From: Candidatus Woesearchaeota archaeon | GTDB taxonomy: Archaea > Nanobdellota > Nanobdellia > Woesearchaeales > WJKL01 | Length of the DNA stretch: 64,000 bases | NCBI GenBank assembly: GCA_019322435.1 | Contig: JAHWIR010000005.1 | Span: 67,443 to 131,442 of the forward strand | Direction: 5' to 3' | Shown: piece after piece, positions 1-18,314 of the stretch | How the letters are laid out: the number at the start of each line of letters is the position of its first letter | Numbering within the stretch: the stretch's first letter is position 1 | The notes under the pieces: model-generated | What the model saw: the letters and a program-made list of their open reading frames with translations, nothing else | Database searches by the model: none | What the model was told of the DNA's origin: nothing | Position numbers and translations under genes: made by a program

Positions 1-3000
1 GATTGGCTTTGAAGGCCCTGCTTTGGACTGGTCATGCCTGCTGTCTGCTCCGTAGCAGTCGCATTTTTCAATAGGCATGTCATTTCCTTGTGGTTCAATC
101 TCGCATCTTGCTCCTGGGAAAGACAAATCGTAATTTGTTGCGCAGACAAGCTCTACAGAATAGCTATCTATCTCGCATCCTGGAGCAAGCATCCATGCAA
201 CATCATACTGGTATGTTGCTATCTCTGTATCAGGGTTCCATGTTATATATCTTCTGCTGGCTGGATATGCTCTTGCTGAGGTCTTGTAAGGAACTGAATA
301 AGCTGTATCCAGGAATGCATCAAAGTCCCAGCCCCAGTCTCCTGTAAGCGCTCCTAGGCAGATCTTTTTTGCAATTGCTCCCTGGCCAACTCCGATAAAG
401 TCTTCTAATGCAGAGCTTGGATACTGGTCAAGCAAGTCAGATGTTGTTCCTGCAACTGCGTCTCTGATTGTTGCTGCTCCTGCTCTTATTCTGTCAGTTG
501 TAACATTGCTTATCTTTGCTCCTGTCCATGGGGTACAGCCTTTTATTAGGCTTGTCAATATTTCAGCAATCCATTCGCAAAGGTATTGAGTAAAGAATTC
601 CTTGCACACTCCTGCATCTGCTTCTCCTGTTGCTTTTATCTGCTCAAGGCAGTTGTAAAGCCCCTGCAGTATGTTTCTTAATAATAATATCCTGTTTCTT
701 ATCTGTGTTGTGCAAAGGCACTGGAATGCAGGCACTGTATTGGATGGATCTAGATAAGCCTCTCCTGGAGAGATAAAGCTGTTTGCTCCAAAGCAGGCAG
801 ACTGGTCTCTTCCTTCGTAATAGACATATTTATTATAAGAATAACCTAGCTTATCATAACGATAATCCCAGAAGTCTTTTAAGTCTCCAGCACTGACTGT
901 CTTTTCTACTAGATCTAATGTATCTTGCGGCGGGTTAGCAAGGGTATTTTCTGGATCCTTTTTTGTGCAAAGGCATATTTCATCTCTATCTAAACACTCT
1001 TTTGCTGTTGTTATTACCCTGCTGAATGGCTGTTTTACTAATCCAGTTACAGGGTCTTTTTCTCCTGCGATGATTTTTGATGCTGTTGTAGAATCTTTGC
1101 ATCCGCTCTCTTTTTCTTCATAGCCTTCTCCTTTACATAATTTCTTGCATGTTACTGTTTCTTCTTTGGATAACTGCACTGTTCTTCCTTTTCCTACAAC
1201 CTCTATTTCTTTTTTAGATACAGGAGATATATCATCATCTATTTTTAAAATTACATTTTCTCCTTTTGCATCTGCTTTGTAAGTATAATAATCTCCTTTA
1301 TAGATCCAGCAAAGTGGTTTTTTTGAGGCTGTTTTTTCCTTGCATTCTTCTGCAGAAGGCCTCATCAGAATTAGTCCTTCTGTTCCTTCTGTTTTTGAGC
1401 ACAGTATGCTTCGTTCTATCCTGACTGCTACCTCTTCTGGTGATTTTCCAGATGTCCATGCTGCTGGAGCTGAGCTGCACAAGAACCTGTCGCAAGACCA
1501 TCTGAAGAATTTGTAAGCAGATGCTTCATAATTCCAGCCTTTGAATGCTGATTTACATCTCTCCTCCAGCTCTGTGTTGGTGAGATCATCCTGGGTCATG
1601 CCTTTTGTCAATTTGCCGTCAGGAGTAAGCTTGTGCTTTGGATTTGCTTTTCCAGATCCTGGTGGAGGGCATTTTGTTCCGTCATCATCCTTCATCACTT
1701 TATCTAATCTGTAATCTGCCCAGGATTTCCATGTTCTTATTCCTCTTGCTATTATTCTTACTGCAAAGCCTGCAAAGCAGGCGATTGCGCTGATTCGTAC
1801 AGCCTGGTTGATCTTATCGAGGTTTTCGTTTATCCTGTTTATTGTCTTGTTGAGGATTTCTGGGCCTTCTTCTATCAGCCAGTCAACAAGAGGAACATCT
1901 CTTGGGTCAATCCTGCTTGTGTCAATTGCAAAAGCCAATGTTCTGCAGGTTGTCTGGCCTTCTGTTATCTGCTCATCGTCTATCTTGTGGGAATAGGTAA
2001 TCTTTATTTTAAATGGGAAAAGGATTTCATCTTCAATATCTCCTGGCTTTATAGGCCATTCAAGGAACTCCTCCTCATAGTCTGATAATGCATTAAGGTT
2101 GTATACAAGATACCACATGTTTTTCCTATCATTTGAGATTCTTACATTTGGAGGATCTTGAAGTATTCTGCAGCTTATTTCATATTTTCCTTTTTTCATC
2201 ATATCTGCTTCACAGGCTTTTACAAACTCAACATCTATTATGCTTGCATTTGAGCCAAAGCCTTGGTAAGAGAGATTGAATACTGCTGAGATTATTCCAG
2301 TGCCTTGCTTTAGTGATGCTGGATTAAGCATGGATGGAGATTGGTGTTCGATTAAATTTGCTATATCCCAGTTTGCTCCTCCTGCATAGCATGTTCCTAT
2401 TGTATAGCTTATTTCTTCCTGAGCAGTGTGGCCTGCCTGGTCTGTTACAACAAAAGTAACTTTAATTGTTCTTGCTTCCTGCTCTTCCAGGATCTCAACT
2501 TCTTCTTCAAGTTCTTCTGGGGAAACGGGAATGTATTCTCCATTTAATTCTCCTTTTATAGTTATAGGTCCAAAAGAGATTCCTTCTAAATCAACATAAT
2601 CAAATTCAAAACGTCCTGTTGAGCTTGCCTGGCCTTTTAGATGAGGATTGCCGTCTGGAGCTTTGTTTATATATACTTCAACTTTTGCGAATGGCTCTGT
2701 ATTTCCGCTTATATCCACTTGTGTTGCTCCTTCATAGAAGAAGGTTGTGTCTGCTGGCTTTAGGTTTTTCAGTTCTGGAGCAGTTGTGTCAAGTGTTATT
2801 GAAGCTGATTCTTCATCAACATTGCCTGCCTGGTCAATTGCCTTTAATCTTATTGTATTTTCTCCTTCCACCAGATTTATGGTTATTTCAAAATCTTTTA
2901 TTCTTCCTCCTGAAACCAGCTCCTCATTCCTGTAGATTTCCAAGAAAGATGTTTCTGAGATTGTTCCTGAAACCACTATAGATGGGTCTGTTGTCATAGA

Positions 3001-3654
3001 AGGCAATGCGTCAAGTGTTATTTCAGGGATAGTCAAGTCAACTGTTGTTGTGAATGTTTTTTCAGTTGTAAGGCCTGCTGAGTCTGTTGCTGCCAATCTT
3101 ATCTCATTTGGCTGGAATGCTGTTAATTCAACATTAAGGAAATTAAATTCTCTTCTTTCTTTTGGGTTGAATGTCCTTCTTAGTATGCCGTTGATATAAA
3201 GCTCTAGTCTTGTAAGAGGTTCTGTTGTTCCTACAATATCTATTCTTGGGCTGTTTATGTATTGCGGAATGTCAACATCAATATGAGGGGGGGTTGTGTC
3301 TCTCTGAGGTGTTTGGAAAGCGTACATTCCTCCATTGTTGTCATCTTCTTCTGTGTCTGTGCTTGACACTGATTTTACTTTGTAATAATAAGTAGTAGAT
3401 GGAGCAAGATTGCCTATGAAGATTGAATGATTAAATATCCTCTCAATATTTGTTTCTACATCAGAAGGGGCTGCTCTGTCTGTGCCGTAGAAGACTCTTG
3501 AGTCAGCAGGCTCGTCTGTCTGCCATGTGATGACTGCAAAGCTGTCTGTTATGTCTTCTGCTTTGATGCCTGATATTTGCAGAGCAGAGACTAGCGGCAT
3601 TGTTATCATTAGCTGAATCATCACTAATGCTATGATTGCTGTTATTTTTCTCAT
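1..3654 (-). CDS. Large secreted fibronectin type III (FN3)-domain surface protein with a Cys-rich C-terminal region. The C-terminus is cut by the window edge (>=1218 aa in window).
   Basis: Open frame on the minus strand from ATG at 3654 to position 1 with no stop; it is absent from the ORF track because it has no in-window stop. The N-terminus MRKITAIIALVMIQLMITMPLVSA is a Sec signal peptide. It is followed by an FN3-like segment (ITWQTDEPADSRVFYG...YYYKVKSVS), and the region toward position 1 is rich in Cys. The ATG overlaps the stop of the upstream gene (ATGA). Confidence 0.6.
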   Translation of the reverse strand, partial: MRKITAIIALVMIQLMITMPLVSALQISGIKAEDITDSFAVITWQTDEPADSRVFYGTDRAAPSDVETNIERIFNHSIFIGNLAPSTTYYYKVKSVSSTDTEEDDNNGGMYAFQTPQRDTTPPHIDVDIPQYINSPRIDIVGTTEPLTRLELYINGILRRTFNPKERREFNFLNVELTAFQPNEIRLAATDSAGLTTEKTFTTTVDLTIPEITLDALPSMTTDPSIVVSGTISETSFLEIYRNEELVSGGRIKDFEITINLVEGENTIRLKAIDQAGNVDEESASITLDTTAPELKNLKPADTTFFYEGATQVDISGNTEPFAKVEVYINKAPDGNPHLKGQASSTGRFEFDYVDLEGISFGPITIKGELNGEYIPVSPEELEEEVEILEEQEARTIKVTFVVTDQAGHTAQEEISYTIGTCYAGGANWDIANLIEHQSPSMLNPASLKQGTGIISAVFNLSYQGFGSNASIIDVEFVKACEADMMKKGKYEISCRILQDPPNVRISNDRKNMWYLVYNLNALSDYEEEFLEWPIKPGDIEDEILFPFKIKITYSHKIDDEQITEGQTTCRTLAFAIDTSRIDPRDVPLVDWLIEEGPEILNKTINRINENLDKINQAVRISAIACFAGFAVRIIARGIRTWKSWADYRLDKVMKDDDGTKCPPPGSGKANPKHKLTPDGKLTKGMTQDDLTNTELEERCKSAFKGWNYEASAYKFFRWSCDRFLCSSAPAAWTSGKSPEEVAVRIERSILCSKTEGTEGLILMRPSAEECKEKTASKKPLCWIYKGDYYTYKADAKGENVILKIDDDISPVSKKEIEVVGKGRTVQLSKEETVTCKKLCKGEGYEEKESGCKDSTTASKIIAGEKDPVTGLVKQPFSRVITTAKECLDRDEICLCTKKDPENTLANPPQDTLDLVEKTVSAGDLKDFWDYRYDKLGYSYNKYVYYEGRDQSACFGANSFISPGEAYLDPSNTVPAFQCLCTTQIRNRILLLRNILQGLYNCLEQIKATGEADAGVCKEFFTQYLCEWIAEILTSLIKGCTPWTGAKISNVTTDRIRAGAATIRDAVAGTTSDLLDQYPSSALEDFIGVGQGAIAKKICLGALTGDWGWDFDAFLDTAYSVPYKTSARAYPASRRYITWNPDTEIATYQYDVAWMLAPGCEIDSYSVELVCATNYDLSFPGARCEIEPQGNDMPIEKCDCYGADSRHDQSKAGPSKPI

Positions 3655-5552
3655 CTTATCAGTTCTGGAGTAGGCACTAATTTTGATTTTTTCTCAATAT
3701 TAGTTAGATATTGAAGCTGTTTTTCCTCATCTCTTGAGAATGGGAATTCAACAACATGGAATTTTATTTGTTTTGCTCTTCTTAAATCATTCCAGGCAGG
3801 TGTCCATTTTCCCATATATCCTCCGTATATTCCCCTGTCATCTGCCAAGTAAGCCTCAATCTCATATTCATAATCCCATTTTGCATGGAATTTTAGCTGG
3901 GATAGGATTTCTTCTTCTGAAGGATAGATTGCTGAGCTTTGCAGGCCTTTTCTTTTGATTGTTATTATGACTGACTGGTCATCATCCAGTGACTCTTCCT
4001 GCCTGACCAAATCTGAGTCAAGGAAGGCTTTGTGCTTTACAAAAGTGATATCTTTGAGTATTGTTGGAGTTAAGTAAATATCAACTGTCTTTTCTTTATC
4101 AGTTGTTGCAAAGACAAAGTTTTCTTCATAGCCTTGTTTTGTTCCTCTTACAACTCCGTTTACGCAGACTGGGAACAGCTCCTGGATAAATGCATCTTCA
4201 ATGCCGTGGAATTTTCTTTCAGTTACACCCATTGGGCAGTTGAATCTGATGCATGTAAAGGAGATATTAACACCTGGAAGCTCTTCATAGAAGTTAATGT
4301 CTGGTGTTGAAACGTTTTCCCATGACCTTACTTTTATAAGGGTTGTTGCTTCTTCTGCGCAGAACTCTTCTGAGGATGCTCTTTGCTGGAAGTCAAACTC
4401 TGTTATGCCAAAGCTTGTCTTATCCGGCTCATTGTGGTTGATGCTGACTTCGAATGCAAAGTTGAAGGTGTATTGGTTGTGGTTTCTGGCTGCATCGTCT
4501 GTTATTGTTACCATAACTGGATATTTTACATCATAGGTAAAGTGCCACATGTGTATGCAAAGGAAAGACATGAGGTCAGCGCTTCTTTGTGCATTTGATT
4601 TTAGGAATGTTCCTTGATTTGGCCTTATCTGCAGCTCAATAGGCCATGTTGGATCATAGTTGAGGTTGACATGCGTGTTTCTGTAGTTCAGGTCTGTTAC
4701 TGTCCAGATATAGTGGTTCTGGACATAAGGCCTTGTATCTGGAATATCTAAGTAATCTGTTTTTTCAATCCTTATTGAAGGAAGATTATAATGGAGCAGG
4801 TCTTTTATCCTTGCTTCTACATCATCAACATACCATATCTTTGGAGAGCAGGTGAATTCCATGTCTGTGTAAGGGACTCTTGGGTCTAAAGCAATAAGGT
4901 CTATTGTCCTTTCTTCCAAGAATTTATCATCTAGCTCCTGGAGCACTATCTCTTTTGCAAGCTCATATACTGTCTTTAATCTGACTGGAACATCTCCTAC
5001 AAACTGGTTTATCCTTGTTACCTTTTGTTCGGCTTTTGAAGTGAATTCCAATGGGTAATCAAGAGTGACTTTGACTGATTCGTCTGTCAGGTCAACGGTG
5101 ATAGCTCTTGGAGCCAGTTCCTGGATAGTGAACTGGTTTTGGAATGGTTCTAGGTTGCTGAGGCATTCATCAAGGTTTTGATCAATGTAATGGGCAAGGT
5201 CTTCCTTCATATAATCCTCAGAAGGATATCTTGTCTGGCCTCTGAAATGCCAGAGAGGGACCTTTATTGAAGGGAACAAGGGACTTCCTCCAAGATATGA
5301 CCTTTGGTCAGAACTTATTTCATCAGGGAACCTGATGAAGCCTCCATTAGCACCTAGAATATTAACTCCGTCTGTTGCTATATTATTAATGCAATCACTA
5401 ACAAAAGTATCAATTGGTTTCAGCTCGGGCGGGACAACGCGCTCTGGTGTAAATACTGTTGTTGCTTGTCTTAAATAAAGGAATAAACCTATTCCAAGAA
5501 GCAGAACTATACCTAAGATGATGAAAAGTGTTATCTGTCCTTTCTTTCTCAT
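3651..5552 (-). CDS. Surface protein with a prepilin-like (class III) signal-peptide N-terminus. Paralogue of 11511-13610.
   Basis: 633-aa ORF whose ATG (5552) overlaps the upstream stop in an ATGA. The N-terminus MRKKGQITLFIILGIVLLLGIGLFLYL has a [KR]G-Q cleavage-like motif followed by a hydrophobic helix. It shares the VxDCI....G..LG..GG[FY]I block with the 11511-13610 protein. Confidence 0.6.
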   Translation of the reverse strand: MRKKGQITLFIILGIVLLLGIGLFLYLRQATTVFTPERVVPPELKPIDTFVSDCINNIATDGVNILGANGGFIRFPDEISSDQRSYLGGSPLFPSIKVPLWHFRGQTRYPSEDYMKEDLAHYIDQNLDECLSNLEPFQNQFTIQELAPRAITVDLTDESVKVTLDYPLEFTSKAEQKVTRINQFVGDVPVRLKTVYELAKEIVLQELDDKFLEERTIDLIALDPRVPYTDMEFTCSPKIWYVDDVEARIKDLLHYNLPSIRIEKTDYLDIPDTRPYVQNHYIWTVTDLNYRNTHVNLNYDPTWPIELQIRPNQGTFLKSNAQRSADLMSFLCIHMWHFTYDVKYPVMVTITDDAARNHNQYTFNFAFEVSINHNEPDKTSFGITEFDFQQRASSEEFCAEEATTLIKVRSWENVSTPDINFYEELPGVNISFTCIRFNCPMGVTERKFHGIEDAFIQELFPVCVNGVVRGTKQGYEENFVFATTDKEKTVDIYLTPTILKDITFVKHKAFLDSDLVRQEESLDDDQSVIITIKRKGLQSSAIYPSEEEILSQLKFHAKWDYEYEIEAYLADDRGIYGGYMGKWTPAWNDLRRAKQIKFHVVEFPFSRDEEKQLQYLTNIEKKSKLVPTPELIR

Positions 5553-6295
5553 TTTATTTTTTCAACTTCTGATACAAAATATATCCTTGCCCATGCCATG
5601 TAAGCTGCATAGAGCAGGACAGAGATTATCAGTATCTGCGGTGCTAATGTGCTTAATAGTCTTATTATGTAGCCTGCTGCTAGTATCAGGATTCCTGGTA
5701 TTAACAGTTTTGGGATGTTTTTTGCTCCGAATTCCAAGGCATTTCCAATTGACTCAAAAACCTTGTTTGTTTTTGTTAGTTTTATGAAGATCAATGCTAT
5801 GAAATATATCAGTGCAGTTAATAATATTGTAGATGCGTACATCAATGCAATTATCTTTGTTTTTAATAATCCTGAGATGAAAAGCAAGATTGGGATTAAG
5901 ATGACTGCAAGAAACAGATTTAATCCAATAAGTTTTTTGAAGTATTTTTTTGTGAATTTCTTTTTCAGCAAAGTTGAATATATCATCCCTCTTGTGAAAG
6001 ACCAGGATAATAATAAGATTACTGCTAAAAGTATTCCAACTATTATTGTTGTGAACATTAATGTGTTTACATCTGCCATTAAGAGCTTTAGCTGGTCTGG
6101 TGTTATCTGAGCCATTGCTTCTTGGGTTAAGGACTCTGGACTGATCTTTGAGCCTTGTTTTGTGATTATTTTTCCTGCAAGATAGGTTGAAGGATAGACT
6201 ATTGCATAGAATAATAGGTCATAGAAGATTATCTGTATGAAATTGAACTTTAGCTTGAATGATTCTATAAATTGCTTTAGCTGTTTTTTAATCAT
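5549..6295 (-). CDS. Polytopic integral membrane protein, hypothetical.
   Basis: 248-aa ORF with 6-7 hydrophobic helices. It overlaps both neighbours by 4-8 bp and sits inside the surface-protein operon. Confidence 0.5.
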   Translation of the reverse strand: MIKKQLKQFIESFKLKFNFIQIIFYDLLFYAIVYPSTYLAGKIITKQGSKISPESLTQEAMAQITPDQLKLLMADVNTLMFTTIIVGILLAVILLLSWSFTRGMIYSTLLKKKFTKKYFKKLIGLNLFLAVILIPILLFISGLLKTKIIALMYASTILLTALIYFIALIFIKLTKTNKVFESIGNALEFGAKNIPKLLIPGILILAAGYIIRLLSTLAPQILIISVLLYAAYMAWARIYFVSEVEKIK

Positions 6296-8477
6296 ATTTT
6301 GGTATTGAAGTGCAAAAATATCTTTTGTTCTCTAATTCATTTTCAAACTCACTGAATGTTCCTCTTTGTATGAGATGTATGCATGCTTTGCTGAATTTTG
6401 TTTCATTGTAGATAAAGAGCATGCCAGGGCCTGCTGCTGACCATGATCCTCCTGGTTTTCTTGTTACATCCTCTTCTAGCAATTCAAGATAGGTTATTCC
6501 TTTTCTCAGCTCTATATTGAATACTGTGTCTTCTGCGCCTTCTTTGAAAGCAGGAGCTACATAAGCAGATACTTTATAGATATATTGTGTTGTGCCATCA
6601 GGCAGGATTACTTTTGAGCTTACTTTTGCCTCGATATGGGCTGCTGCTTTTTTCAATCCACCTGGTGTGTCTACAAACACTGTTCCTTTTGCATCTGGGT
6701 CCATGTCAAACCATCTTCCGCAGATCTCTGATTTCCAGTATTCTATATCCAGGCCAAGCTTTGCAAAGAACTTGTCCATATCTTCTCTCCATTTTGCCCA
6801 GTTCTCTGCTTTTGGCAGCAGGTTTGAGAAAGATCCTAGGTCGTATCTTCCTAATTGTGCCAGCTTTTGTCCTTCTGCTGACAGATAATTGATAATATCA
6901 AAGGTTAAACTTACTGTATATGCTGCATGATTCCTGTGTTGGCCTTGGTCTTTTAGTTTCTGTATAAGATCAGGATCTCCTCTAAACATAGGAGGATCTA
7001 ATGTTTTTCCGTTCTCATCTACAAAGACTACAGATGCTGACTTGTCTTTTTCTTTGATTACATACTCCCATGGTTCTCCTGAGTTCCGGTTTTTTAAATC
7101 TATATCATATGTATCAGGTTTTTGTTTTCCTGTTTCTTTGTCCACTTTATAGATTCTTTCAGCACTTATCGGTGTACCATCACTATCAAAGTTCATGATA
7201 TGATTAACTATTTGTCTTTCTAGTTTTGGATTTCCTTCTTTATCTTTTTCCTTTGTCTTTATATCCTGATATTCGATTGTTGTTGTGAACCAGTCTCCTT
7301 TGATAACTTCTTTATATGGTTCTCCTTTTTTGAAATCAGATTGTGTTATTCTTGCTTCTTCTTCTGCAACAATATCTTCAACAGTATCTTTGTATTGTTT
7401 TGCAATAACCATTCCATCTTTATCTTGAACTTCTAAAACACCTTCTTTTATGACTGGGTTTTTTACACCATCAATATTCTTTAGAGCATCTACTAAATCT
7501 TGATATCCTGCACGGGTTGTTGTATATTCCTTACGATCTGTATCTCTAATTAATACATTGTCTAATTTTTCTTTAGTAATTGGGTCAACTTGTATGAATA
7601 TGTCTGCATTTTTGTCAAATATTGCATCCCTTTTTGTCTGCTTTATATAAAGTTCAGGCGGATTCTTAACTAGTGCATTATTTTTGTAATAATAATAATC
7701 TCCTCCTCTCTCATAGACTGGCTTGCCAGTCCCGTCAACAAAGCTGGTAGGTTTATAGTTGGTTCCTGCAAGCCTTTTTGCATCGCTTACTTCAAGTTTA
7801 AAAATCTTTTTTCTTCCATCTAACACAGCATTTTCTCCAACAAGGGTTTCAACCCGTTTTCCATTTATTAACAGCCAGTATGCTTGACCTCCTGCCATTG
7901 GCCTTAATTCATATTTTTTAGGAGAGATTACTGCTACTTCTTTTGTTACTTCTTTAACAGAAACTAATTTGTAATCGGTTCCTTCTGCATCCTTTTTTAA
8001 TTGGGCTTCAAATTCTTCTTTTGAATCTTTAATGTTAGAATAAGTATCAGTAAATTTATCTTTTTCGTCTTTAACATTTTGATAAACTGCTTCGAATACA
8101 GTTGTTTTTTCTCTAGGCAGCTGTTTGGTTTCAATTCCAGTGTCAGTTACTAAAGTGTATTCCCCTTCTTTAGTTAGGATTCCTGCTGCTGTTTCTATTG
8201 AAGAATATTCTGTAATACCCCATGCAAGTGAATTTCTATTCCAAAAATATACCCTTTCTTTTTCTTTTTTAACATGGACAAGGCTTTCGTATTTATCATC
8301 AAGAGTAGGATCTTCTTTCTTGGTTGTGATAATATAACCTGTTGAACCTTCTGGTTTAACTTTTCCCTCAAGAACCAATTGTCTGAAAGCTGGATCTTTT
8401 TCGATTTGAGATAATATAGGAGGAATTACAACTAACAAAAACATCAACATTATTCCAATCAATATTTTCTTATTCAT
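6288..8477 (-). CDS. Large secreted protein, hypothetical.
   Basis: 729-aa ORF with N-terminal signal peptide MNKKILIGIMLMFLLVVIPPILSQ. It is K/E/T-rich and overlaps the downstream gene start by 8 bp. Confidence 0.55.
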   Translation of the reverse strand: MNKKILIGIMLMFLLVVIPPILSQIEKDPAFRQLVLEGKVKPEGSTGYIITTKKEDPTLDDKYESLVHVKKEKERVYFWNRNSLAWGITEYSSIETAAGILTKEGEYTLVTDTGIETKQLPREKTTVFEAVYQNVKDEKDKFTDTYSNIKDSKEEFEAQLKKDAEGTDYKLVSVKEVTKEVAVISPKKYELRPMAGGQAYWLLINGKRVETLVGENAVLDGRKKIFKLEVSDAKRLAGTNYKPTSFVDGTGKPVYERGGDYYYYKNNALVKNPPELYIKQTKRDAIFDKNADIFIQVDPITKEKLDNVLIRDTDRKEYTTTRAGYQDLVDALKNIDGVKNPVIKEGVLEVQDKDGMVIAKQYKDTVEDIVAEEEARITQSDFKKGEPYKEVIKGDWFTTTIEYQDIKTKEKDKEGNPKLERQIVNHIMNFDSDGTPISAERIYKVDKETGKQKPDTYDIDLKNRNSGEPWEYVIKEKDKSASVVFVDENGKTLDPPMFRGDPDLIQKLKDQGQHRNHAAYTVSLTFDIINYLSAEGQKLAQLGRYDLGSFSNLLPKAENWAKWREDMDKFFAKLGLDIEYWKSEICGRWFDMDPDAKGTVFVDTPGGLKKAAAHIEAKVSSKVILPDGTTQYIYKVSAYVAPAFKEGAEDTVFNIELRKGITYLELLEEDVTRKPGGSWSAAGPGMLFIYNETKFSKACIHLIQRGTFSEFENELENKRYFCTSIPKYD

Positions 8478-11400
8478 TTTAATAGCTTTTCTGCTGTTTT
8501 GCAGTAATCTTCTCCTGCTGTGTAGATATAGTTATCTGGCTCAAGGATTCCTACTACATCTTCGTATAGCTCAATTCCCATTATGAGTAACTCATATATT
8601 CTACATGCTGCGTTTCTTTTACGATTGGTTGCACAAAGATATAAACAAACAGCCTCTATACTGACTCCTATGACTGTCAATGGCTCTGATAGTGCTTGTT
8701 TTACTGAATTGATAATATTAGAGAATACGGCTGTTATTGGGCATGCATTAAACAATTCTCCTACAAGATATTTGCATATTTCATAGTGTTTTAATTCATC
8801 GCAGGCATGGGTTGAGACTCCTGTGTTGGCAGATCCTTTTAAGCAGATTATGTGCCTGCATCCTATCTGCCTGTATCTCTCAGCTGCAGCTAAGATTCCA
8901 GGGATGCAGAGTGTTGCAACAGCAACAAAAAGATTGTCTTTTGCATTCAGGTATTCATTTGGGTCTTTTGCTTTGTCTTTTGCTCCTCCAAACCATCTGT
9001 TTGCAATATCTCCACCGCATAAATTTAATATCCAATTTCCCGTTTCTTGCCATCCTCCAACAACACCCCAGGCTCCTTTTTCTTTTTCTGGGTCAGGGGA
9101 TAACCTGCAGTTCCAGAATTTGCAGAATTTTGTTACTTCTCCATACATGCCTTCCTTCGTTTCACCAACAAACTCCTCTGTCATGCATGCTGCTATAGAT
9201 ACTGCTTTTCCTGGTGCTCCTATGTCATCAACAGCTAATTTAACTGTACCTATTATTACTTCTAGATCCTGGAGAGCAAGTATCGCATCGCATATCTGCT
9301 CTGCCAAGCCCATATAATTTCTCCATTTGTCAATGTCTGCCCACCAAGAATCAATAAACTCATCTTTTGATTTTTTTATCTTCTCCTTGATTTCTGAACT
9401 TGCTTCTCCAAGGCGGTTTGAGTAGAGCGGGACAGCTATCTCTATAATTTCCTCTTCTATATAGGATAATTGGTTATTGTAAAGGGAAACAAGCTCGATT
9501 GTGCAGTTGAATTTCAATGGAGAATCTTTGATTGGATAGTCAGCATCGTCAAACTGGAATACAAGATAAGGATTGGTTGTTCCTCTTCCATTGTTGAATA
9601 TTCCTTCTCCCTCTACAAAAGTTTCGTAGTCGTCTCCTGTGCATTCCCTGATGCTGATGTCAACTATCTCTGCTTCTGAGTCAGTGCTTAAATCAACAAC
9701 TGCATAGACTCTTGGCTCAACTATCATAGCCAGCTGCGTGTCAATGCCTTTTGACGGCTGGATATTAACAGAATCAACTGTCCAGTAATCTGGATATTCA
9801 TCGTCTTCTAATGCAAATATTTCAATGGATTTATCTGCAGTGTCAAAGTTTCCAGCTGAATCAAGAATCTTGATATCCATTGTTGTGTTTACATAGCCTG
9901 ATTTAATAGAAGGGATATTCCAGTAGCATTGGAATTCATTTCCTGTTTTAGTGCACTCTGTTGCTGGAAGCTCATCTGCATCAATATGGTCATAGACTCC
10001 TGAGAAATTTCCTATAGCTCTTATTCCTGCTTCATCTGTTCCCTGTACAACAACAGCTAATGAATCATGGGAAACTGCAACGCCTTCTGGTCTTTGTGTT
10101 TCTTCAAATGCAACCCATTCAACAGAATCTATGATAGGATCTTGGGTGTCAACAATAATGTTTGCAGAGGTTGTTCCTGTTGCTATGTTTCCTGCATTAT
10201 CCCTGGCTGTTACAATAAATACACTAAGAGAGCTTCCATGGGATTTTGTGGTTGTTAGGTTATGCCATCTGCATGTCCATGTGCTTCCAGCCTGGTCGCA
10301 TCTGTCTGCTTTTACATCGTTTCCATAATCTGGATTTATCAAAGACAGGTAAAGGGATATCTGGCTGCTTGAGATTCCAGAGCCTGTTTCAGTAAGCTTA
10401 ACAATTATGTCAACTGGCTTGTCTCCGATATAGCTTTTGCCTTCAAAAGCATAATCTGTTCCAATAAAGGTTATCTCAGGAGCATCTGTATCAATGTTGA
10501 AGTCTCTTGTTACAAGTGCTGGAGCTGCTTGATTGCCGTATGCATCTGTTGCATGGAAGAAAAGATGAGCTGTTTTTCCAGCAGATATGTCAACATTTAC
10601 ATCGCTCCATGTGCAGGTTATATAGAATCCATCTTCAATGCAGTCAGTGGTTGTTATATCTGAGCCTGCTCCTATATCTGACAGATCAGCTCTTGCTTCA
10701 AGATTCTGAACAGTATCGTCTTCTATCTTTATCTTGATGACTGCCTTAAAAGGCTCGCCTGGAGCTGAGTTTCCAATAGGGATTCCATCTTTAAGAAGCT
10801 CAAAGGAATTTGGAAGTATTATTGGAGGATTGTTGTCATGGATAAAGCCTGTTATTGTCTCTGATGCAACAAAACCCATCCTGTCATATGCTTTTATCAG
10901 TATTGTATCTGAGTAAGAAAGTGAGACAATTGTTGTATTGGAAAAAATGCATTGTTCTGGAGAGTCAATAATTATTTCATGCAGTAATCTAGAGCCGTCC
11001 AGGAATTCTATTCTTGATATTCCAGAGCATCTTGTAAATTCATTTTCATTTGCCCTGTCTGTTACTTTAAGAGGGATTATAACTTCCTGCAGGTCCTGGA
11101 CAACATCTCCTGTCAGTGTTATTTCAGGAGCAAGGTTGTCAATTGTCATGTCTTTTTCAACTGTCTTTAACACAACTCCTGTATCTGAATGAAGTGTGAA
11201 TGTTGCTGGATATGTGCTAATAGGCAGTGTATAATATTCTCCTGTATAAGTGCATGTGAAGAGATTGCCTGCTGTTCTTGTGCATTCCTGGAATGGAAAT
11301 TCTTTATTTATCTTTACTTGGTTAGGTGTTATTTCAGAATCACCATCAACTTCTGCATTTGCTACAAGAAACCATCTGTCATATTCTTCAAAATAGCCGT

Positions 11401-11518
11401 TCACATCCTTGTCTCCGCTGTATTTGGTCATCTCAAAGGTTGTTGCTGCATAAGCTATAGGGAGAGATAGGATTAGCAAAATCATTACAATGGCTTGTGT
11501 TATTATTGTCTTATTCAT
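8474..11518 (-). CDS. Large secreted protein with a Cys-rich C-terminal domain, hypothetical.
   Basis: The ORF track starts at a TTG (11530). An in-frame ATG at 11518 (MNKTIITQAIVMILLILSLPIAYA, a signal peptide) is the more likely start and overlaps the upstream stop. The C-terminal ~300 aa carry >20 Cys. Confidence 0.55.
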   Translation of the reverse strand: MNKTIITQAIVMILLILSLPIAYAATTFEMTKYSGDKDVNGYFEEYDRWFLVANAEVDGDSEITPNQVKINKEFPFQECTRTAGNLFTCTYTGEYYTLPISTYPATFTLHSDTGVVLKTVEKDMTIDNLAPEITLTGDVVQDLQEVIIPLKVTDRANENEFTRCSGISRIEFLDGSRLLHEIIIDSPEQCIFSNTTIVSLSYSDTILIKAYDRMGFVASETITGFIHDNNPPIILPNSFELLKDGIPIGNSAPGEPFKAVIKIKIEDDTVQNLEARADLSDIGAGSDITTTDCIEDGFYITCTWSDVNVDISAGKTAHLFFHATDAYGNQAAPALVTRDFNIDTDAPEITFIGTDYAFEGKSYIGDKPVDIIVKLTETGSGISSSQISLYLSLINPDYGNDVKADRCDQAGSTWTCRWHNLTTTKSHGSSLSVFIVTARDNAGNIATGTTSANIIVDTQDPIIDSVEWVAFEETQRPEGVAVSHDSLAVVVQGTDEAGIRAIGNFSGVYDHIDADELPATECTKTGNEFQCYWNIPSIKSGYVNTTMDIKILDSAGNFDTADKSIEIFALEDDEYPDYWTVDSVNIQPSKGIDTQLAMIVEPRVYAVVDLSTDSEAEIVDISIRECTGDDYETFVEGEGIFNNGRGTTNPYLVFQFDDADYPIKDSPLKFNCTIELVSLYNNQLSYIEEEIIEIAVPLYSNRLGEASSEIKEKIKKSKDEFIDSWWADIDKWRNYMGLAEQICDAILALQDLEVIIGTVKLAVDDIGAPGKAVSIAACMTEEFVGETKEGMYGEVTKFCKFWNCRLSPDPEKEKGAWGVVGGWQETGNWILNLCGGDIANRWFGGAKDKAKDPNEYLNAKDNLFVAVATLCIPGILAAAERYRQIGCRHIICLKGSANTGVSTHACDELKHYEICKYLVGELFNACPITAVFSNIINSVKQALSEPLTVIGVSIEAVCLYLCATNRKRNAACRIYELLIMGIELYEDVVGILEPDNYIYTAGEDYCKTAEKLLK

Positions 11519-13610
11519 ATTCTGGCTCAATATGTTTTCTGAATTTTGCTGAAAGTTTTTCTATGTTAGGCACAGCTTCTTCTACTTTTCTTGGAAGGTT
11601 AGGGCTTATCACATAGAATATGATTTCCTTGCTTTCATAGAGGTCTTTAGGAGTTACTTCAAGAGGTCCTGTCTTTTCATTTAAGATTGCTCCTCCTGAA
11701 GGATATTCATCGAATACAACTTTTGGAATAGTGTACTCTTTCTTTGCGCCTAATTGCCGTGAAATCCAATCTGCTCCTGTGCTTCTTTTGTCTTTAGGAA
11801 TCACAACTTTTTGCTTGAGTATTACATTGCCAGTTAGTTCATAGGTTCCTGGAACTATTCTTTGCAGTACAGAAGGCTCTGTTTGGTTTCCCTTGAACTG
11901 CACTGCTGAGACTAACTCTGGATCTCCTGGTGTGCTTGGGATTCTTTCAAAGCCCAAGATGGCTATTTCTTTCTCTCTAAGAGGTATTGGCTGATCACTT
12001 AGTTTATTGCTCCTGATTGTGTATGGAAGGCTTTTTACTGTTATGTTTATATTAGCATAAGGATATGCTTGTGTTACAACAAATTCATTTCTGCCTATTC
12101 TTGTTGTTAGTGGTTTTGCAGGGATAAAATAATCATTATGTATAAAGGAAACAACACCCCCTAAACAGCCAGGAAGTTTTGTGGTTAATTCTCCGTTTTC
12201 ATCTGTCATTCCTGTGAAACAGCTCTCTTCTCCGCAAGTATATGTAACCTGGACTTTTGATATTCCTTTTGCAGGATCTAATGCATCTTCTATTTTGATG
12301 CTTATATCTCCGCTGTTTCTCAAGTCAAAATCACAGAACTGTGTTCCTGTAGGAACAAAGGATGTTTCATAGCCAGGGAAGTCTGCCACAATAGGCTGGT
12401 TGTTTCTTACATTGCCTTCCAATGCAAACTTAAAAGAATAGCCTCTTCTGTCAAATGCATAGGGGTCTGATATGTCAACAACAGTAGGGAAGGATATATC
12501 ATAGCTAAAGGAATACCTCTGGACCCCCACTAATGTAAGCAAGGGGTTGTTCATCTTTTCTGGCTCGCATATGTCGCCTTTGCAGTCAAGGTCAAAGTAG
12601 ATTGGCCACCATCCAAGATAGTCAAAGGTTGTTCCGAAATCATTGTATTTTTTATCATAGTTTAGAGGGACGTCCATTGCATAGAAAGCTGTTTTTACAT
12701 CATCTCCTGCAATGATTCTTGGGTCATGGTTTAGTGTGAAGGGGATTTGCAAGGCTCCTGTATAAGTCATCAAAAGGGACTGCACATCTTGTTTTACTAT
12801 TGTCTTTGACCAGATTGTGCCTCCTGCAAAATTAAATTCCATATCTGTCTTTGGAGGCAGAGCATCTGAGTCAGTAGAGGCAAATGCTGAGATAACATTT
12901 AGGATCTGGTTCTCAAGGAAATTGTATTCTACTTGTGTGTTTGTTATTTCTGTGGCAAAGTTGTAGATTCTTTTGAATTCAACTGGAAGGGATACATAGA
13001 AATCCTCAATCCTGTGGGAAATGTCTCCTCTTTTTATTTCAACAGGATAATTGACAAAGATGCTGATATCAAAATCTTCGATTCTGACTGTAGCTGATGC
13101 AGGGCTTTCTTGTATTTCAAAGCCCTGCTCTATAAATGATTCATAGTTCAAGCAGGAGATTAGTTTTTTATTGATATAATCCTTTGCCTGGGATTCAATC
13201 ATGGTTAAAGAAGGTCTCATGGAGCTGAAAGAGCAGTCTCCTGTGCATTTGTTTGGAGACTTAAGAAAATGCCAGTAAGGGATTGCCATATCTGAGCCTA
13301 GAGAGAATTTAAGGCCTTCTGCTTCTGTTGGATTGATAGAGCTTGTTACAATGCCGTAATCAGATGGGTTTATGTATCCGCCGCGGTCACCTATCTTTCT
13401 GAAGGCATCTTCTGATATTGCATAGATGCAGTCTTCAATAAAAAGCCTTACAGGCCTTACTTCAGAAGGTATCTCTGTTATTGCTGGAATTGCTTCTGGC
13501 TCTAGCTCTTTTTCAACTACAATTGAACGGATGTATAAGAAAGATGCGAATAACAACAGAATTACTATCCCTAGTATTATATATAGAGTTATCTGCCCTC
13601 TTTTTTCCAC
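11511..13610 (-). CDS. Surface protein with a prepilin-like (class III) N-terminus. Paralogue of 3651-5552, first gene of the operon.
   Basis: The ORF-track start (13625) is a TTG. A GTG at 13610, preceded by GAGGGGA 6-7 nt upstream, gives the N-terminus M-EKRGQITLYIILGIVILLL, which parallels MRKKGQITLFIILGIV of the paralogue. A TATA box (TTTATAAAGGG on the minus strand) lies about 40 bp upstream. Confidence 0.55.
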   Translation of the reverse strand: MEKRGQITLYIILGIVILLLFASFLYIRSIVVEKELEPEAIPAITEIPSEVRPVRLFIEDCIYAISEDAFRKIGDRGGYINPSDYGIVTSSINPTEAEGLKFSLGSDMAIPYWHFLKSPNKCTGDCSFSSMRPSLTMIESQAKDYINKKLISCLNYESFIEQGFEIQESPASATVRIEDFDISIFVNYPVEIKRGDISHRIEDFYVSLPVEFKRIYNFATEITNTQVEYNFLENQILNVISAFASTDSDALPPKTDMEFNFAGGTIWSKTIVKQDVQSLLMTYTGALQIPFTLNHDPRIIAGDDVKTAFYAMDVPLNYDKKYNDFGTTFDYLGWWPIYFDLDCKGDICEPEKMNNPLLTLVGVQRYSFSYDISFPTVVDISDPYAFDRRGYSFKFALEGNVRNNQPIVADFPGYETSFVPTGTQFCDFDLRNSGDISIKIEDALDPAKGISKVQVTYTCGEESCFTGMTDENGELTTKLPGCLGGVVSFIHNDYFIPAKPLTTRIGRNEFVVTQAYPYANINITVKSLPYTIRSNKLSDQPIPLREKEIAILGFERIPSTPGDPELVSAVQFKGNQTEPSVLQRIVPGTYELTGNVILKQKVVIPKDKRSTGADWISRQLGAKKEYTIPKVVFDEYPSGGAILNEKTGPLEVTPKDLYESKEIIFYVISPNLPRKVEEAVPNIEKLSAKFRKHIEPEYE

Positions 13611-13706
13611 TATTGTTCCCCTCAAGGTAAAAATATCTATTTACCCTTTATAAACTTTGCGATAAATTGAGATGGAAATTATGATACTCATATCATTTTG
13701 GGTAAA

Positions 13707-13823: not shown

Positions 13824-14657
13824 ATGGCATTAAGATTAGAACCTTATGTTAGAAAGCAGTTGGCTGCTGGTTATGATATTAAGACAATTAGGGATTTTCT
13901 TATAAGAAGCGGTTATGATGTAAGGGATATTAATAAAGCGATTGATGCTGTTTATAAGAAAAAGCCTAGAAAACCAATTCCATTAAAAGGTGTTCTTGTT
14001 GCTGTGCTGATTATTGTTGTCTTGATTGCAGGGATATTGTTCATCTTCAACATAATGGGGGAGGAAGAGGTTGTTGAGACAGTCACTTTTGCCTATGAAA
14101 GAGAAGTAGAGGAAGTAAAGCCTTTGGTTAAAGAAGAGATTCCAGGAGGGGCTGTTGTTGTTGTGGAAGAGATAACATGCCCTGACAGCTGCGATGACAA
14201 GGATGCATGCACTATAGATTACTGCGGAAAGGAAACAAGCTATGTATGTGTTAATCAAAGAGTAAGGCCTTGCTGCGGAAATGATATCTGCGAAGGCGGA
14301 GAAACAAGTGATAATTGCAGGGCTGACTGCAAAGAAGTTGAAGTGTATATTGCTCCTGCTGCTGCAGAATCACTGACTGATGTTGTGCTGGAAGCAAAGG
14401 AACTGGCAAAGGCAAGTCCAGGCAGTGCTGCCAGCTACTGTTCAAGGCAGACAAAGCAGAATGTAAAAGACAGCTGCTATAAAGCTGTTGCTGAGAGTGC
14501 AAAGCAAAGCGTGTATTGCGATGAGATTGTATCTGAGCTAAAAGCTGACAGCTGCTATGTGACTGCTGCAACAGAATGGAATGATTTTAGTGTTTGCGCA
14601 AAAATAAATGACAAATATCTGCAATTAGCCTGCAATAATTTGGCTGAAGCTAGTTAA
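13824..14657 (+). CDS. Membrane-anchored protein with an extracellular paired-Cys repeat domain, hypothetical.
   Basis: 277-aa ORF with one TM helix (VLVAVLIIVVLIAGILFIF). The C-terminal repeats follow the pattern S.C..I......SCY...A and end in ACNNLAEAS. A TATA box (TTTTATATA, 13793-13801) about 25 bp upstream suggests a leaderless transcript. Confidence 0.5.
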   Translation: MALRLEPYVRKQLAAGYDIKTIRDFLIRSGYDVRDINKAIDAVYKKKPRKPIPLKGVLVAVLIIVVLIAGILFIFNIMGEEEVVETVTFAYEREVEEVKPLVKEEIPGGAVVVVEEITCPDSCDDKDACTIDYCGKETSYVCVNQRVRPCCGNDICEGGETSDNCRADCKEVEVYIAPAAAESLTDVVLEAKELAKASPGSAASYCSRQTKQNVKDSCYKAVAESAKQSVYCDEIVSELKADSCYVTAATEWNDFSVCAKINDKYLQLACNNLAEAS

Positions 14658-15355: not shown

Positions 15356-16843
15356 TTATTTAATTCTCTGAAACAAAATCTCTGGCTTGCCAATCTTATG
15401 GTTTTTCAAATCAAAATTCAAATCTTTCCAAGTCAGTTTCTTAAGTTTTAATTGTTTCTGCAGTTTTTCAGCTGCTTCTGGTATGATTGGCTGCAGTAAT
15501 ATAGATAGGTTTTTTACAATATTAACACAGGTTCCTAGAACTTCATGAGAGGTTTCCAGGTTTTTCCATGGCTCTTTTTGCTGGAAGTATTGGTTGCCTA
15601 GAGCTGAGACTGCCAGGATGCCTTCAATTACTTTTTTGAAGTCGTATTCTTCATAGGATTTTTTTATATCATCGAATTTTGCAGTGATCTCAGTCACCAT
15701 TGGAGTTGGATCAGAATCTTTTATCTCAGATTTGTAGTTTTTCTCTGTGAAAGACAGAACTCTGTAGCAGAAGTTTGAGAAGTTTCCAACCAGTTCTGTG
15801 TTTATTCTTTCTCTTACCAAATCTTCTGAATATTCTCCGTCTCCGTCAATTGGCATTGAGTTCAGGATGTAGAACCTGTAAGGGTCAACTCCGAAGATCT
15901 TGATCTGATCAAAAGGTTCAATTACATTTCCTGTTGATTTGCTCATCTTGGCTCCGCCTTTTGCCAATACCCAGCCGTGTACAAACAGCTCTTTTGGCAG
16001 AGGAACTTTTCCTGATATCAGCATTGCAGGCCAGAAAGCTGCATGGAATCTTAGGATATCTTTTCCAATGACATGGATGTCTGCTGGCCAGTGTTTTTTG
16101 AATTCATCTTCTTCACGTCCATAGCCAACTCCTGTTATATAATTAGACAGAGCATCGCACCAGACATACATTATTTGTGATGGATCTCCTGGAACAGGAA
16201 TTCCCCAAGGCAGTGATGTTTTTGGTCTTGAGAATGAAATGTCTTTTGCTTGTTTTAACCAGGATAGAATTTCATTTTTTCTGATTTCAGGAACAACTTT
16301 GTATTTGTTCCTTTTGATGATATCTATGACTTGGTCTTTGTATTTTGAAAGTTTAAAAAAGTAATTTTCTTCTTCTATTGCTTCTATCTCTCTTGTTGGG
16401 TGTTCAGGGCATTTTTTATCAACCAGTTCTTTCTCTGTCTTGAATGCTTCGCAGCCAGTGCAGTACATTCCTTTGTATTTTTTCTTGTAGATGTCTCCTG
16501 CTTTAACTAAAGCTTCCCCTAGTTTTATTGCTCCTGGATAATGTGTTTTTTCATCTGTTGTTCGGATAAAATTATCATAATTTACATTAAGTAATTTGTA
16601 TAAATCCTTGAATACTTTTACATTTGCATCCAGGAAATCAATTACATCTTTTCCCTGCTTTTTAGCTGTCTGCCAGTTTTTAGTTCCATGCTCATCTGTT
16701 CCTGTCTGAAACCAAACATCTTTTCCTAGAAGCTTGTAGAATCTAGCTAAAGCATCTGCCTGGATTATCTCTAATGCATGGCCCTGATGCGGAGGCCCGT
16801 TTGGATATGCAATAGCTGTTGTAATGTAAAATTTTTTTGGCAT
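15356..16843 (-). CDS. metG: Methionyl-tRNA synthetase.
   Basis: HIGH-type motif (PHQGHA) near the N-terminus, a KMSKS motif (GAKMSKSTGNV), and Zn-knuckle cysteines (CTGCEAF...CPEH). 495 aa. Confidence 0.9.
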   Translation of the reverse strand: MPKKFYITTAIAYPNGPPHQGHALEIIQADALARFYKLLGKDVWFQTGTDEHGTKNWQTAKKQGKDVIDFLDANVKVFKDLYKLLNVNYDNFIRTTDEKTHYPGAIKLGEALVKAGDIYKKKYKGMYCTGCEAFKTEKELVDKKCPEHPTREIEAIEEENYFFKLSKYKDQVIDIIKRNKYKVVPEIRKNEILSWLKQAKDISFSRPKTSLPWGIPVPGDPSQIMYVWCDALSNYITGVGYGREEDEFKKHWPADIHVIGKDILRFHAAFWPAMLISGKVPLPKELFVHGWVLAKGGAKMSKSTGNVIEPFDQIKIFGVDPYRFYILNSMPIDGDGEYSEDLVRERINTELVGNFSNFCYRVLSFTEKNYKSEIKDSDPTPMVTEITAKFDDIKKSYEEYDFKKVIEGILAVSALGNQYFQQKEPWKNLETSHEVLGTCVNIVKNLSILLQPIIPEAAEKLQKQLKLKKLTWKDLNFDLKNHKIGKPEILFQRIK

Positions 16844-17267: not shown

Positions 17268-17669
17268 TTATTTCTTTGGCTTCTTCATCTTCTTGGTGAT
17301 GCCAATCTTTTCCCCGCATTTGTTGCAGGTGAAGACATACGCTTTGACTCCTCTCCAAGATTTTAATTTGTACTCAGTAGTTGCTTCTCCTTCATCACCG
17401 CAATGAGGACATTTGTATTCAATCTCTACTTTTAGATTTGGATCCATCTCTGCTTTATCTACTTCATATCCACATTCCTTGCATGTGTAGATTTTTGCTC
17501 TTGATTTTACTTTTCCTGTTTTTGGGTCAACTGGCTTTCCCATTTTTACTTTTTCGCATTTTGGACACATTGGCTTCTTGACCCATGCAATGATAGTCCC
17601 TTTTCCATCATCTATTGTTCTGTTAGTAAAGTAAAAACATTCATCCATTGATTCTGGCATTGTTACCAT
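17268..17669 (-). CDS. Zinc-ribbon protein, hypothetical.
   Basis: 133-aa ORF with four CxxC pairs (CPKC, CKEC, CPHC, CNKC) and a K-rich tail. Confidence 0.5.
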   Translation of the reverse strand: MVTMPESMDECFYFTNRTIDDGKGTIIAWVKKPMCPKCEKVKMGKPVDPKTGKVKSRAKIYTCKECGYEVDKAEMDPNLKVEIEYKCPHCGDEGEATTEYKLKSWRGVKAYVFTCNKCGEKIGITKKMKKPKK

Positions 17670-17670
17670 T

Positions 17671-18222
17671 TTAGTTTACCTCATACATATCTCCATGTCC
17701 TGGAACTATGAAATCTGCTTTTTCTTTAACTATTTTTCTGCTTTGTTCTAGTTTTTTCTTGTTAGATGCATAAGGATCATCTTCTGGTTCGTCTTCTTTC
17801 CAAAAAACATCTCCTGCAACAGCAACAATACCTTTTTCTGTTTTGACTAACAAAGTAATGGCATCATAATTATGTCCTGGTGTTTTTATTATTTCAATAT
17901 CCTCTGAAAATTTAGGATTCCAGTCATCAACTGTATCTTTTTCCCAGATTCCCCAGTAATCCAATGCTTTTGCATTTGGAAACATTCCAATGTTTCTATA
18001 ATGATCCATATGAGAATGGGTTATGCAGACATAGTTTATATCTTCTATTGATAATCCTTCTTTTTTCAATGCATTGATTAGAATTTGCCTGTCTTTTAAT
18101 GTTCCCGGGTCAACAACCATGTTGATATCTTTGTCTTGAATCAAGGTTATTGTGCATTGGGTTTTTTCCTCTCCTGACTCTTCAGATGTATATCCTTGAA
18201 CTAAGATTTTGACTTGTGCCAT
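17671..18222 (-). CDS. MBL-fold metallo-hydrolase.
   Basis: HxHxDH motif (ITHSHMDHY) with downstream His/Asp ligands (PGHNYD, GHGD). 183 aa. Confidence 0.7.
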   Translation of the reverse strand: MAQVKILVQGYTSEESGEEKTQCTITLIQDKDINMVVDPGTLKDRQILINALKKEGLSIEDINYVCITHSHMDHYRNIGMFPNAKALDYWGIWEKDTVDDWNPKFSEDIEIIKTPGHNYDAITLLVKTEKGIVAVAGDVFWKEDEPEDDPYASNKKKLEQSRKIVKEKADFIVPGHGDMYEVN

Positions 18223-18314
18223 AGTTAGAAAAATTAGATTGTTATTTATTAAGGTTACGTTTTTGAAAATTAAAAACGAAGTTAAAAAAGCTTCGCGTTT
18301 TTTAACTTGTGGTT

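Follow-up and report, generated by a model that had tools for sequence, protein, structure and literature searches.

Background

Few uncultured archaea are as abundant as Woesearchaeota and Nanoarchaeia, whose hosts and mechanism of attachment are not known. Here we describe an operon of large surface proteins in a stretch of 64,000 nucleotides from Candidatus Woesearchaeota archaeon (contig JAHWIR010000005.1, positions 67,443 to 131,442), which is called the window throughout the text. Several described systems invite comparison with it, and some of them come from the same lineage. A family specific to Woesearchaeota and Pacearchaeota comprises proteins of up to 3000 amino acids (aa) with an SLT domain, for which attachment to bacterial walls was proposed (Castelle et al. 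2021, PMC8204110). A “vampiristic”, or predatory, lifestyle with the use of murein transglycosylases was proposed for Woesearchaeota (Vigneron et al. 2022, PMC9723730). According to a survey of 2025, peptidoglycan hydrolases are especially prominent in Nanoarchaeota, and archaeal peptidoglycan hydrolases kill bacteria (PMC12352652).

Other archaeal surface systems are relevant as well. SlaB of Sulfolobales is anchored by a C-terminal transmembrane (TM) segment with a coiled coil. The SPEARE proteins of Nanohaloarchaeota are reportedly giant surface proteins with degradative domains, proposed for contact with the host. The arCOG01314 system is defined by DUF4350, a MoxR-type AAA+ ATPase, a vWA protein, and membrane proteins of the DUF1616/COG4743 type (PMC5898192).

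The operon described here keeps its gene order across hundreds of uncultured Woesearchaeota and Nanoarchaeota. It is a strong candidate for the device with which these archaea grip, and sometimes breach, their bacterial partners.

Organization and conservation of the operon

The window contains six consecutive minus-strand genes, which we designate G1 to G6 in the order of transcription (Table 1); G6 is cut by the window edge. The junctions from G1 through G6 overlap by 8, 4, 8, 4, and 4 bp if G1 starts with GTG at 13610 and G2 with ATG at 11518. An earlier sequence-only reading of the window had listed six overlapping genes with exactly these overlaps, and the listing of open reading frames (ORFs) together with their translation bears this out. 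Its start codons are backed by two identical database proteins, P0001 for G1 (100% identity, 699 aa) and P0063 for G2 (100% identity, 1014 aa). Also supported is its view that these genes of a DPANN archaeon are transcribed as one tightly coupled unit and encode surface proteins. The DPANN assignment is right, since P0063 is annotated as [quoted passage not shown] and the gene content of the window agrees; its other genes include form III RuBisCO, archaeal S6e, eIF2-gamma, and methionyl-tRNA synthetase (MetRS). A Shine-Dalgarno-like GAGGGG is seen by eye 9 nt ahead of the G1 GTG. No tRNA or Rfam elements were found in the window.

At least 446 relatives were found in a scan of species-representative genomes and at least 450 in a metagenome scan seeded with G5. 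The G1 family is limited to records of Woesearchaeota and Nanoarchaeota and to a few contigs of evidently mis-binned metagenome-assembled genomes (MAGs). To count synteny, the ORFs of 166 loci, some of them from mislabelled MAG bins, were classed with iterated family profiles. Gene order in relatives had been chosen beforehand as one of the points at which the idea of one system could fail, and the order proved to be conserved. G2 follows G1 in 55 of 60 informative loci, and G6 follows G5 in 52 of 53. Among the 29 loci with 10 kb available downstream, 18 have G2, G3, G4, and G5 in this order 3' of G1. The median gap is -4 bp for both the G1-G2 and the G5-G6 junctions (approximately 80-90 gene pairs; starts were called mechanically, so the value is approximate). 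The same gene order is seen in relatives whose G1 is only 28-50% identical, and therefore the arrangement is not a matter of chance.

The six genes are real, but the unit is longer than the six that the sequence-only reading had proposed. In loci anchored on G5, the G6 of relatives is 1368-2699 aa long, and a second G4-like membrane protein, G4', follows it in 22-25 of 28 cases. The G4' profile also picks up 46 copies of the upstream G4; thus G4 and G4' are paralogous families. Since G1 is paralogous to G5, G2 to G6, and G4 to G4', and since G4' follows G6 in relatives, the predicted full unit is [G1, G2, (G3), G4] + [G5, G6, G4'], a duplicated three-gene module of an anchor, a giant, and a membrane protein. 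A duplication had indeed been suspected, though with modules of two genes around one membrane protein instead of three genes with a membrane protein each. Some genomes, e.g. those of loci L047 and L082, have extra copies of the three-gene module upstream.

Two loci contain candidate fusions. In L073 (5845-9990) a single ORF comprises G2, including its helical bundle, and the C-terminal domain of G3, and in L043 (9810-13163) a single ORF comprises G5 and G6 without the signal peptide of the latter. These fusions, which could also be artefacts of assembly or frameshifts, would support a physical association of G2 with G3 and of G5 with G6.

In the closest relative, L087, two NAD-binding ORFs that look saccharopine-dehydrogenase-like by eye (17359-19691) lie between G6 and the second G4-like gene. 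A similar insertion may be present just past the window edge.

The MetRS gene (15356-16843, minus strand) lies directly upstream of G1 on the same strand. MetRS is found upstream of G1 also in the distant loci L014, L021, L022, L057, L060, L072, and L078, so this is a core-genome neighbourhood. ORFs of ~700-750 aa upstream of G1 in relatives were considered as pilus ATPases and rejected, as they encode MetRS.

Table 1 Coordinates of the operon genes and their features in the window
Feature	Position	Strand	Remarks
Candidate TATA-like box TTTATAAA	13647..13654	-	upstream of G1; read by eye from the sequence
G1	11511..13612	-	699 aa; 704 aa if TTG at 13625 is used
G1 class-III-signal-like motif RGQITLYIILG	13569..13601	-	
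G1 head domain, residues 57-420	12366..13457	-	alpha/beta; no structural relative found in PDB
G1 C-terminal stalk, residues 440-700	11526..12308	-	tandem transthyretin-like/CnaB-like beta-sandwiches
G2	8474..11520	-	1014 aa
G2 core motif CIPGI..RQI.C..CL..G..C..C, residues 854-919	8764..8961	-	common to G6
G2 C-terminal disulfide-rich all-alpha domain, residues 690-1014	8477..9451	-	325 residues; 10 invariant Cys and 2 more in >90% of members
G3	6288..8477	-	729 aa
G3 conserved C-terminal domain, residues ~540-729	6291..6860	-	family-defining part
G4	5549..6295	-	248 aa
G5	3651..5552	-	633 aa
G5 class-III-signal-like motif KGQITLFIILG	5511..5543	-	
G6	<1..3654	-	first part, at least 1218 aa, of a giant; rest outside the window
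G6 segment homologous to the G2 core motif, residues 959-1037	544..780	-	

Peptidoglycan-directed domains in orthologues

Pfam and NCBIfam gave no enzymatic match for any of the six window proteins. Thus the statement of the sequence-only reading that no catalytic motif is recognizable holds for the window copy. It does not extend to the orthologues of G3 and G6, which bear five kinds of peptidoglycan-directed domains. Among 48 members of the G3 family and ~35 members of the G6 family, all domains other than Ig and FN3 are peptidoglycan-directed. SLT is present above the Pfam gathering score in G3 of L099, L047, and L040 (with a classical VESS...GLFQV motif in the latter two), and also in L034 (E=8e-19), in a 1906-aa ORF that takes the place of G3. 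G3 of L024 contains Peptidase_M23 (E=4e-17), and G3 of L103 contains PG_binding_1 (E=1e-5). VanY was found in two of 25 G6 proteins (E=3e-31), and Amidase_2 in G6 of L165 (E=2e-21).

In the window, SLT was detected neither in G3 nor in residues 1-1218 of G6 at E<=0.1. For G3 the search was negative also by alignment, regular expression, and phmmer, and its aligned region is without the ES...GLFQ motif. The G6 of the closest relative has no hydrolase domain.

That murein-directed modules were acquired five times independently, and no other modules at all, is a strong signal on the target of the apparatus. The domains of the orthologues point to bacterial, murein-walled partners. An attachment or cell-cell contact role had been proposed for the operon from the sequence, and it is partly supported; such bacterial partners were not foreseen. 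A coupled surface operon that recruits peptidoglycan-directed domains of five kinds is genomic evidence that many members of the lineage meet bacteria rather than archaea.

Anchor paralogues G1 and G5

G1 and G5 are clear paralogues, as had been supposed: BLASTP aligns them with E=1e-42 and 27% identity across ~500 aa, and G5 matches the family profile with E=5e-158. All 62 homologues of G1 are hypothetical proteins of Woesearchaeota or Nanoarchaeota. Both proteins begin with [KR]GQITL(Y/F)IILG followed by a hydrophobic helix, which is the single strong hydrophobic helix in each of them. The family consensus is [KR][GA]Q[IV][TS]xFIIxG, again followed by a strongly hydrophobic helix. A FlaFind-type rule (a [KRDE][GA] cleavage motif and a hydrophobic helix of ~20 residues) selects 143 of 192 full-length members of the family. 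All 143 have [KR][GA]Q, with Gln at +1 in 100% and Phe at +5 in 94%; Q11 of G1 is invariant.

The N-terminal 53-55 aa of G1 and G5 have no match to PF04021 (Class_IIIsignal) or PF07790 (Pilin_N) in hmmscan at E<=10; only Tad came up, with E=0.11. In the AlphaFold (AF2) model of G1 (predicted local distance difference test, pLDDT, 87.7) a helix of residues 6-41 is followed by a disordered linker, an alpha/beta head of ~360 residues, and C-terminal beta-sandwiches. The low-confidence linker 40-56 parts the helix from the separate alpha/beta domain, and no continuous pilin-type alpha-1 helix packed on a globular beta-sheet was found in the model. The term “prepilin-like”, applied to these proteins in the sequence-only reading, therefore needs to be revised. 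Only the conserved [KR][GA]Q motif agrees with it; the lack of a Pfam pilin-model match, Phe instead of Glu at +5, and the linker between helix and globular part do not.

Secreted giants G2 and G6

The N-termini of G2, G3, and G6 are signal-peptide-like. G2 consists of a signal peptide, Ig-like repeats with a conserved Cys pair each, and a C-terminal helical bundle; its Ig part is related to the bacterial Ig domains Big_3_3/Big_13. There are 27 Cys in G2 and 31 in the visible part of G6, concentrated C-terminally. The C-terminal domain of G2 was modelled as an all-alpha bundle of 14 helices (pLDDT 84, predicted template modelling score 0.78). A word-index search with G2, using a single sequence or a 60-sequence profile, returned three true relatives along with bacterial Ig-repeat proteins; hence an exhaustive HMMER search with the C-terminal domain was made. 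It gave 881 cluster representatives at E<=1e-3, nearly all of ~1000-1100 aa with the domain at the C-terminus.

The N-terminus of G6 has weak matches to fn3/Ig-like Pfam models. After the FN3/Ig part there is a large Cys-rich region. In the closest relative, whose G6 has 1790 aa, its conservation extends to about residue 1320, and the tail behind it is variable. By comparison with these 1790 aa, the window G6 is without its C-terminal ~570 aa, and a Logan contig extends it by 65 aa. In the metagenome scan G6 alone gave nothing and the G6 alignment was too divergent as a seed; the G5 alignment worked.

BLASTP of G2 against G6, of G3 against G2, and of G3 against G6 gave nothing significant. The suggested kinship of the Cys-rich C-termini of G2 and G6 nevertheless emerges as distant homology in profile comparisons. 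In the Cys-rich core (65 columns) the hhalign probability is 89.7% (E=1.9e-6), with a cross-match in hmmsearch too, and in the N-terminal signal and Ig part it is 98.3% (E=2e-14). Family-averaged hydropathy revealed no membrane span in the C-terminal helices of G2. These hydrophobic helices and a TM-like segment of G6 are not membrane spans.

The signal-like N-termini of the G2/G6 family (11449-11520 and 3583-3654 in the window) are unusually conserved, with the pattern A.FMI.LI..LP.Y.A and an invariant Pro. Instead of an ordinary Sec signal, these N-termini may represent one dedicated to sorting or retention.

G3 and G4

In the window, G3 has its short form; its N-terminal part is variable, and no peptidoglycan hydrolase domain is detectable in it. 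Conservation across 66 homologues is confined to the last ~190 residues, the remainder varying from ~300 to ~1850 residues. The C-terminal domain is likely a docking module.

G4 is a polytopic protein with 4-5 hydrophobic segments and few conserved motifs, and it has no Pfam match at E<=10. A prepilin peptidase (Peptidase_A24) was considered for G4 and rejected: there is no GxGD and there is one conserved Asp in the family alignment.

The G1 head, the G2 helical bundle, the G3 C-terminal domain, and G4 have no relatives in Pfam, NCBIfam, or PDB. Outside the lineage no relatives were detectable for the head of G1, for the helical core of G2 and G6, for the domain by which G3 would dock, or for G4. 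Several of these domains without structural relatives (the G1 head, the G2 helical bundle) are confidently predicted.

Function of the operon

We favour the reading in which the operon encodes a lineage-specific surface apparatus of Woesearchaeales/Nanoarchaeia for contact with murein-walled bacteria; we infer this function and give it about an even chance of being correct. G1 and G5 would be held in the membrane by their class-III-like N-terminal helix, exposing an unmatched head and a CnaB/transthyretin-like stalk. Each anchor would be made together with a Sec-exported giant (G1 with G2, G5 with G6) that has no membrane span of its own and projects Ig/FN3 repeats and a disulfide-locked helical domain. 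Since G2, G3, and G6 are predicted to be Sec-exported and to lack anchors, they would have to be retained by partners. One small polytopic membrane protein would belong to each module, G4 to one and G4', past the window edge, to the other. From the tight coupling, the fusions, and the strictly kept adjacency we would expect complexes of G1:G2(:G3) and of G5:G6, both including a membrane protein of the G4 type.

G3 would dock via its conserved C-terminal domain, with the variable N-terminal part as cargo. The Ig/FN3 arrays and the CnaB-like stalk would push the assembly outward from the cell, and the disulfide-locked helical domains and the heads of G1 and G5 are candidate interaction modules. 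G3 and the tail of G6 may carry lineage-variable cargo which, where present, binds or cuts murein. Where G3 or G6 has SLT, M23, VanY, amidase, or PG-binding domains, the assembly would also cut or grip bacterial peptidoglycan locally. More speculatively, the operon could be an undescribed lineage-defining contact machine, in which two paralogous anchor-giant-membrane modules and a cargo-docking subunit, with folds largely without relatives, would fasten the cell to a bacterial host or prey and breach its murein. We advance this wider proposal only tentatively and would sooner doubt than accept it. If it were true, the operon would give a first molecular clue to the way of life of uncultured Woesearchaeales and to the organisms they live on. 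The operon also singles out particular proteins for localization, modelling, and expression.

Some observations weigh against contact with bacteria as the function. Just ~10% of the orthologues have a recognizable murein-directed domain, and the window G3, the visible two thirds of G6, and the G6 of the closest relative are all without one. Bacteria may therefore have nothing to do with the core function, hydrolases being passengers taken on now and then. In addition, the MetRS neighbourhood and the near-universality in the lineage fit a constitutive envelope component equally well. In such an envelope G2 and G6 would form an Ig-like S-layer canopy and G1 and G5 its membrane-anchored stalks, as in SlaA/SlaB, the hydrolase domains being occasional add-ons. 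Vertical inheritance of the operon and an architecture rich in beta-sandwich domains are consistent with this, and the pairing of an anchor gene with a giant gene resembles slaAB. S-layer genes are also among the most highly expressed genes of Woesearchaeota (PMC11606122). Yet a set of seven coupled genes, in which a module is duplicated, each copy has its own polytopic membrane protein, and G3 bears cargo, is atypical of S-layer loci, none of the six proteins matches S-layer models of Pfam or NCBIfam, and the similarity to SlaB is only at the generic beta-sandwich level. Five families of murein-directed domains favour an outward-acting function, and we consider an S-layer unlikely.

The N-terminal motif allows for a different view, compatible with contact with bacteria. 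G1 and G5 could be true class III substrates cut before Gln+1, and type IV filament machinery encoded elsewhere could build them into a filament, at its tip or its base, as large minor-pilin adhesins or as a bindosome-like display carrying G2 and G6. The [KR][GA]Q motif and the hydrophobic helix fit the FlaFind-type rule, with Gln+1 in every matching member, and such N-terminal conservation is unusual for a mere membrane anchor. Minor pseudopilins located at the tip, such as GspK, likewise lack Glu+5. Non-pilin proteins with class III signals encoded away from the machinery are known from the bindosome (preprint 10.64898/2026.04.22.720090). On the other hand, the operon, the 64-kb window, and the flanks of the examined loci contain no ATPase, platform protein, peptidase, or small pilin; no type IV filament ATPase, platform protein, or class III/prepilin peptidase was found in the operon, in ~45 scanned ORFs of the window, or among the called genes in the flanks of relatives. 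The absence of secretion ATPase and pilus-assembly genes from the operon had been noted from the sequence, and the scanned window ORFs confirm it. The silent class III and pilin profiles, with Tad alone at E=0.11, and the AF2 helix with its disordered linker, in place of an alpha-1 helix packed on a pilin beta-sheet, also argue against filament insertion, which seems to us improbable. Alternatively, the operon could be an antibacterial weapon, contact-dependent or secreted and lytic, that serves predation or competition and not stable attachment to a host. The peptidoglycan hydrolase domains of orthologues, the killing of bacteria by archaeal peptidoglycan hydrolases (PMC12352652), and the “vampiristic” lifestyle with murein transglycosylases proposed for Woesearchaeota (PMC9723730) would suit a weapon. 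Most orthologues, the window copy included, are without a lytic domain, and the system shows conservation instead of polymorphism in its core. Apart from G6, which varies in length, no polymorphic C-termini of an immunity-like or toxin-like kind were recognized. We regard a weapon as very improbable.

Other genes in the window

A divergent gene adjoins G1 (13824-14657, plus strand). It encodes a 277-aa single-TM Cys-rich protein with a Dicty_CTDC repeat match (E=8e-7), and a similar gene adjoins G1 in the closest relative L001. A second, unrelated secreted giant of 1949 aa (26885-32734, plus strand) contains Cys-rich repeats as well as propeller repeats of the Vgb_lyase/NHL-like kind (E=9e-31), a metal-binding motif of the MopE type, and, at its C-terminus, a CARDB domain.

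The minus-strand gene at 57979-58773 encodes 264 aa and includes a diguanylate-cyclase (GGDEF) domain (Pfam E=9e-31). Enzymes of c-di-GMP metabolism are rare in archaea, so this gene may be a bacterial acquisition. Bacterial-type regulators are encoded on the plus strand at 34672-35412 and 41643-42317. They comprise an HTH_8 protein of the Fis family (E=1e-15) and a receiver domain of the response-regulator type, which is a weak match. A 459-aa protein (61078-62457, minus strand) has RNase_H_2 (E=2e-30), DUF2779, and weak Cas4/PD-(D/E)XK signatures.

Comparison with known systems

The sequence-only reading had found no match to any named system, and the searches of Pfam, NCBIfam, structures, and literature lead to the same conclusion. 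Among the closest known systems are the large SLT proteins (fam00969, Module 98; PMC8204110; PMC9723730), which are extracellular giants of the same lineage, up to ~3000 aa, with SLT. The long SLT-bearing forms of the G3 family (L099, L047, L040) and the ORF at the G3 position of L034 parallel fam00969. Judging by the published description alone, fam00969 would be the G3 family. Those papers describe a protein family and not an operon, and the window G3 is a short form without SLT.

In Sulfolobales, as here, adjacent genes (SlaA/SlaB) encode an anchored beta-sandwich stalk and a very large Ig-rich outer protein, and SlaB is among the structural matches of the G1 stalk. There is no sequence homology with SlaA/SlaB, the anchor of G1 is an N-terminal helix, unlike that of SlaB, and the module of the operon is duplicated, with membrane proteins and G3. 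The class III proteins of the bindosome, which are sugar-binding proteins displayed by BasEF (preprint 10.64898/2026.04.22.720090), are likewise large surface proteins that begin like pilins without being pilins, and their genes lie apart from any filament machinery. Unlike them, G1 and G5 have no substrate-binding-protein domain and no ABC transporter neighbour, follow the consensus QITxFIIxG without Glu+5, and have a giant partner each. The sortase pilins and MSCRAMM adhesins of Gram-positive bacteria (SpaA, BcpA, SdrD, TIE) are similar at the fold level only; the operon has no LPXTG or sortase, is archaeal, and uses an N-terminal helix as the anchor. The arCOG01314 predicted secretion or membrane-remodelling system (Makarova et al. 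2015, PMC5898192) is likewise an archaeal cluster of Ig-domain surface proteins and small polytopic membrane proteins. It was rejected as the identity of the operon, as none of its defining Pfam families was found in the operon proteins or scanned neighbours. The SPEARE proteins are reportedly single proteins of many domains, from a different DPANN lineage whose hosts are archaea; no homology to them was seen, though no search aimed at it was made.

Pilins and type IV filaments, S-layers, the bindosome, arCOG01314, and (for the window copy) the SLT family each fail at least one tested defining feature, and at the fold level the operon resembles known systems only in its generic Ig/FN3 and CnaB-like domains. 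No description of the operon was found in the searchable literature. The long SLT-bearing forms of G3 have already been noticed as an isolated family; the operon itself, the duplicated arrangement of its modules, the fusions, and the wide range of murein-directed cargo appear to be undescribed. We rate the operon as categorically new as a system, its function being the part that we infer, and it places the “large SLT proteins”, formerly known as an isolated family, in an operon context.

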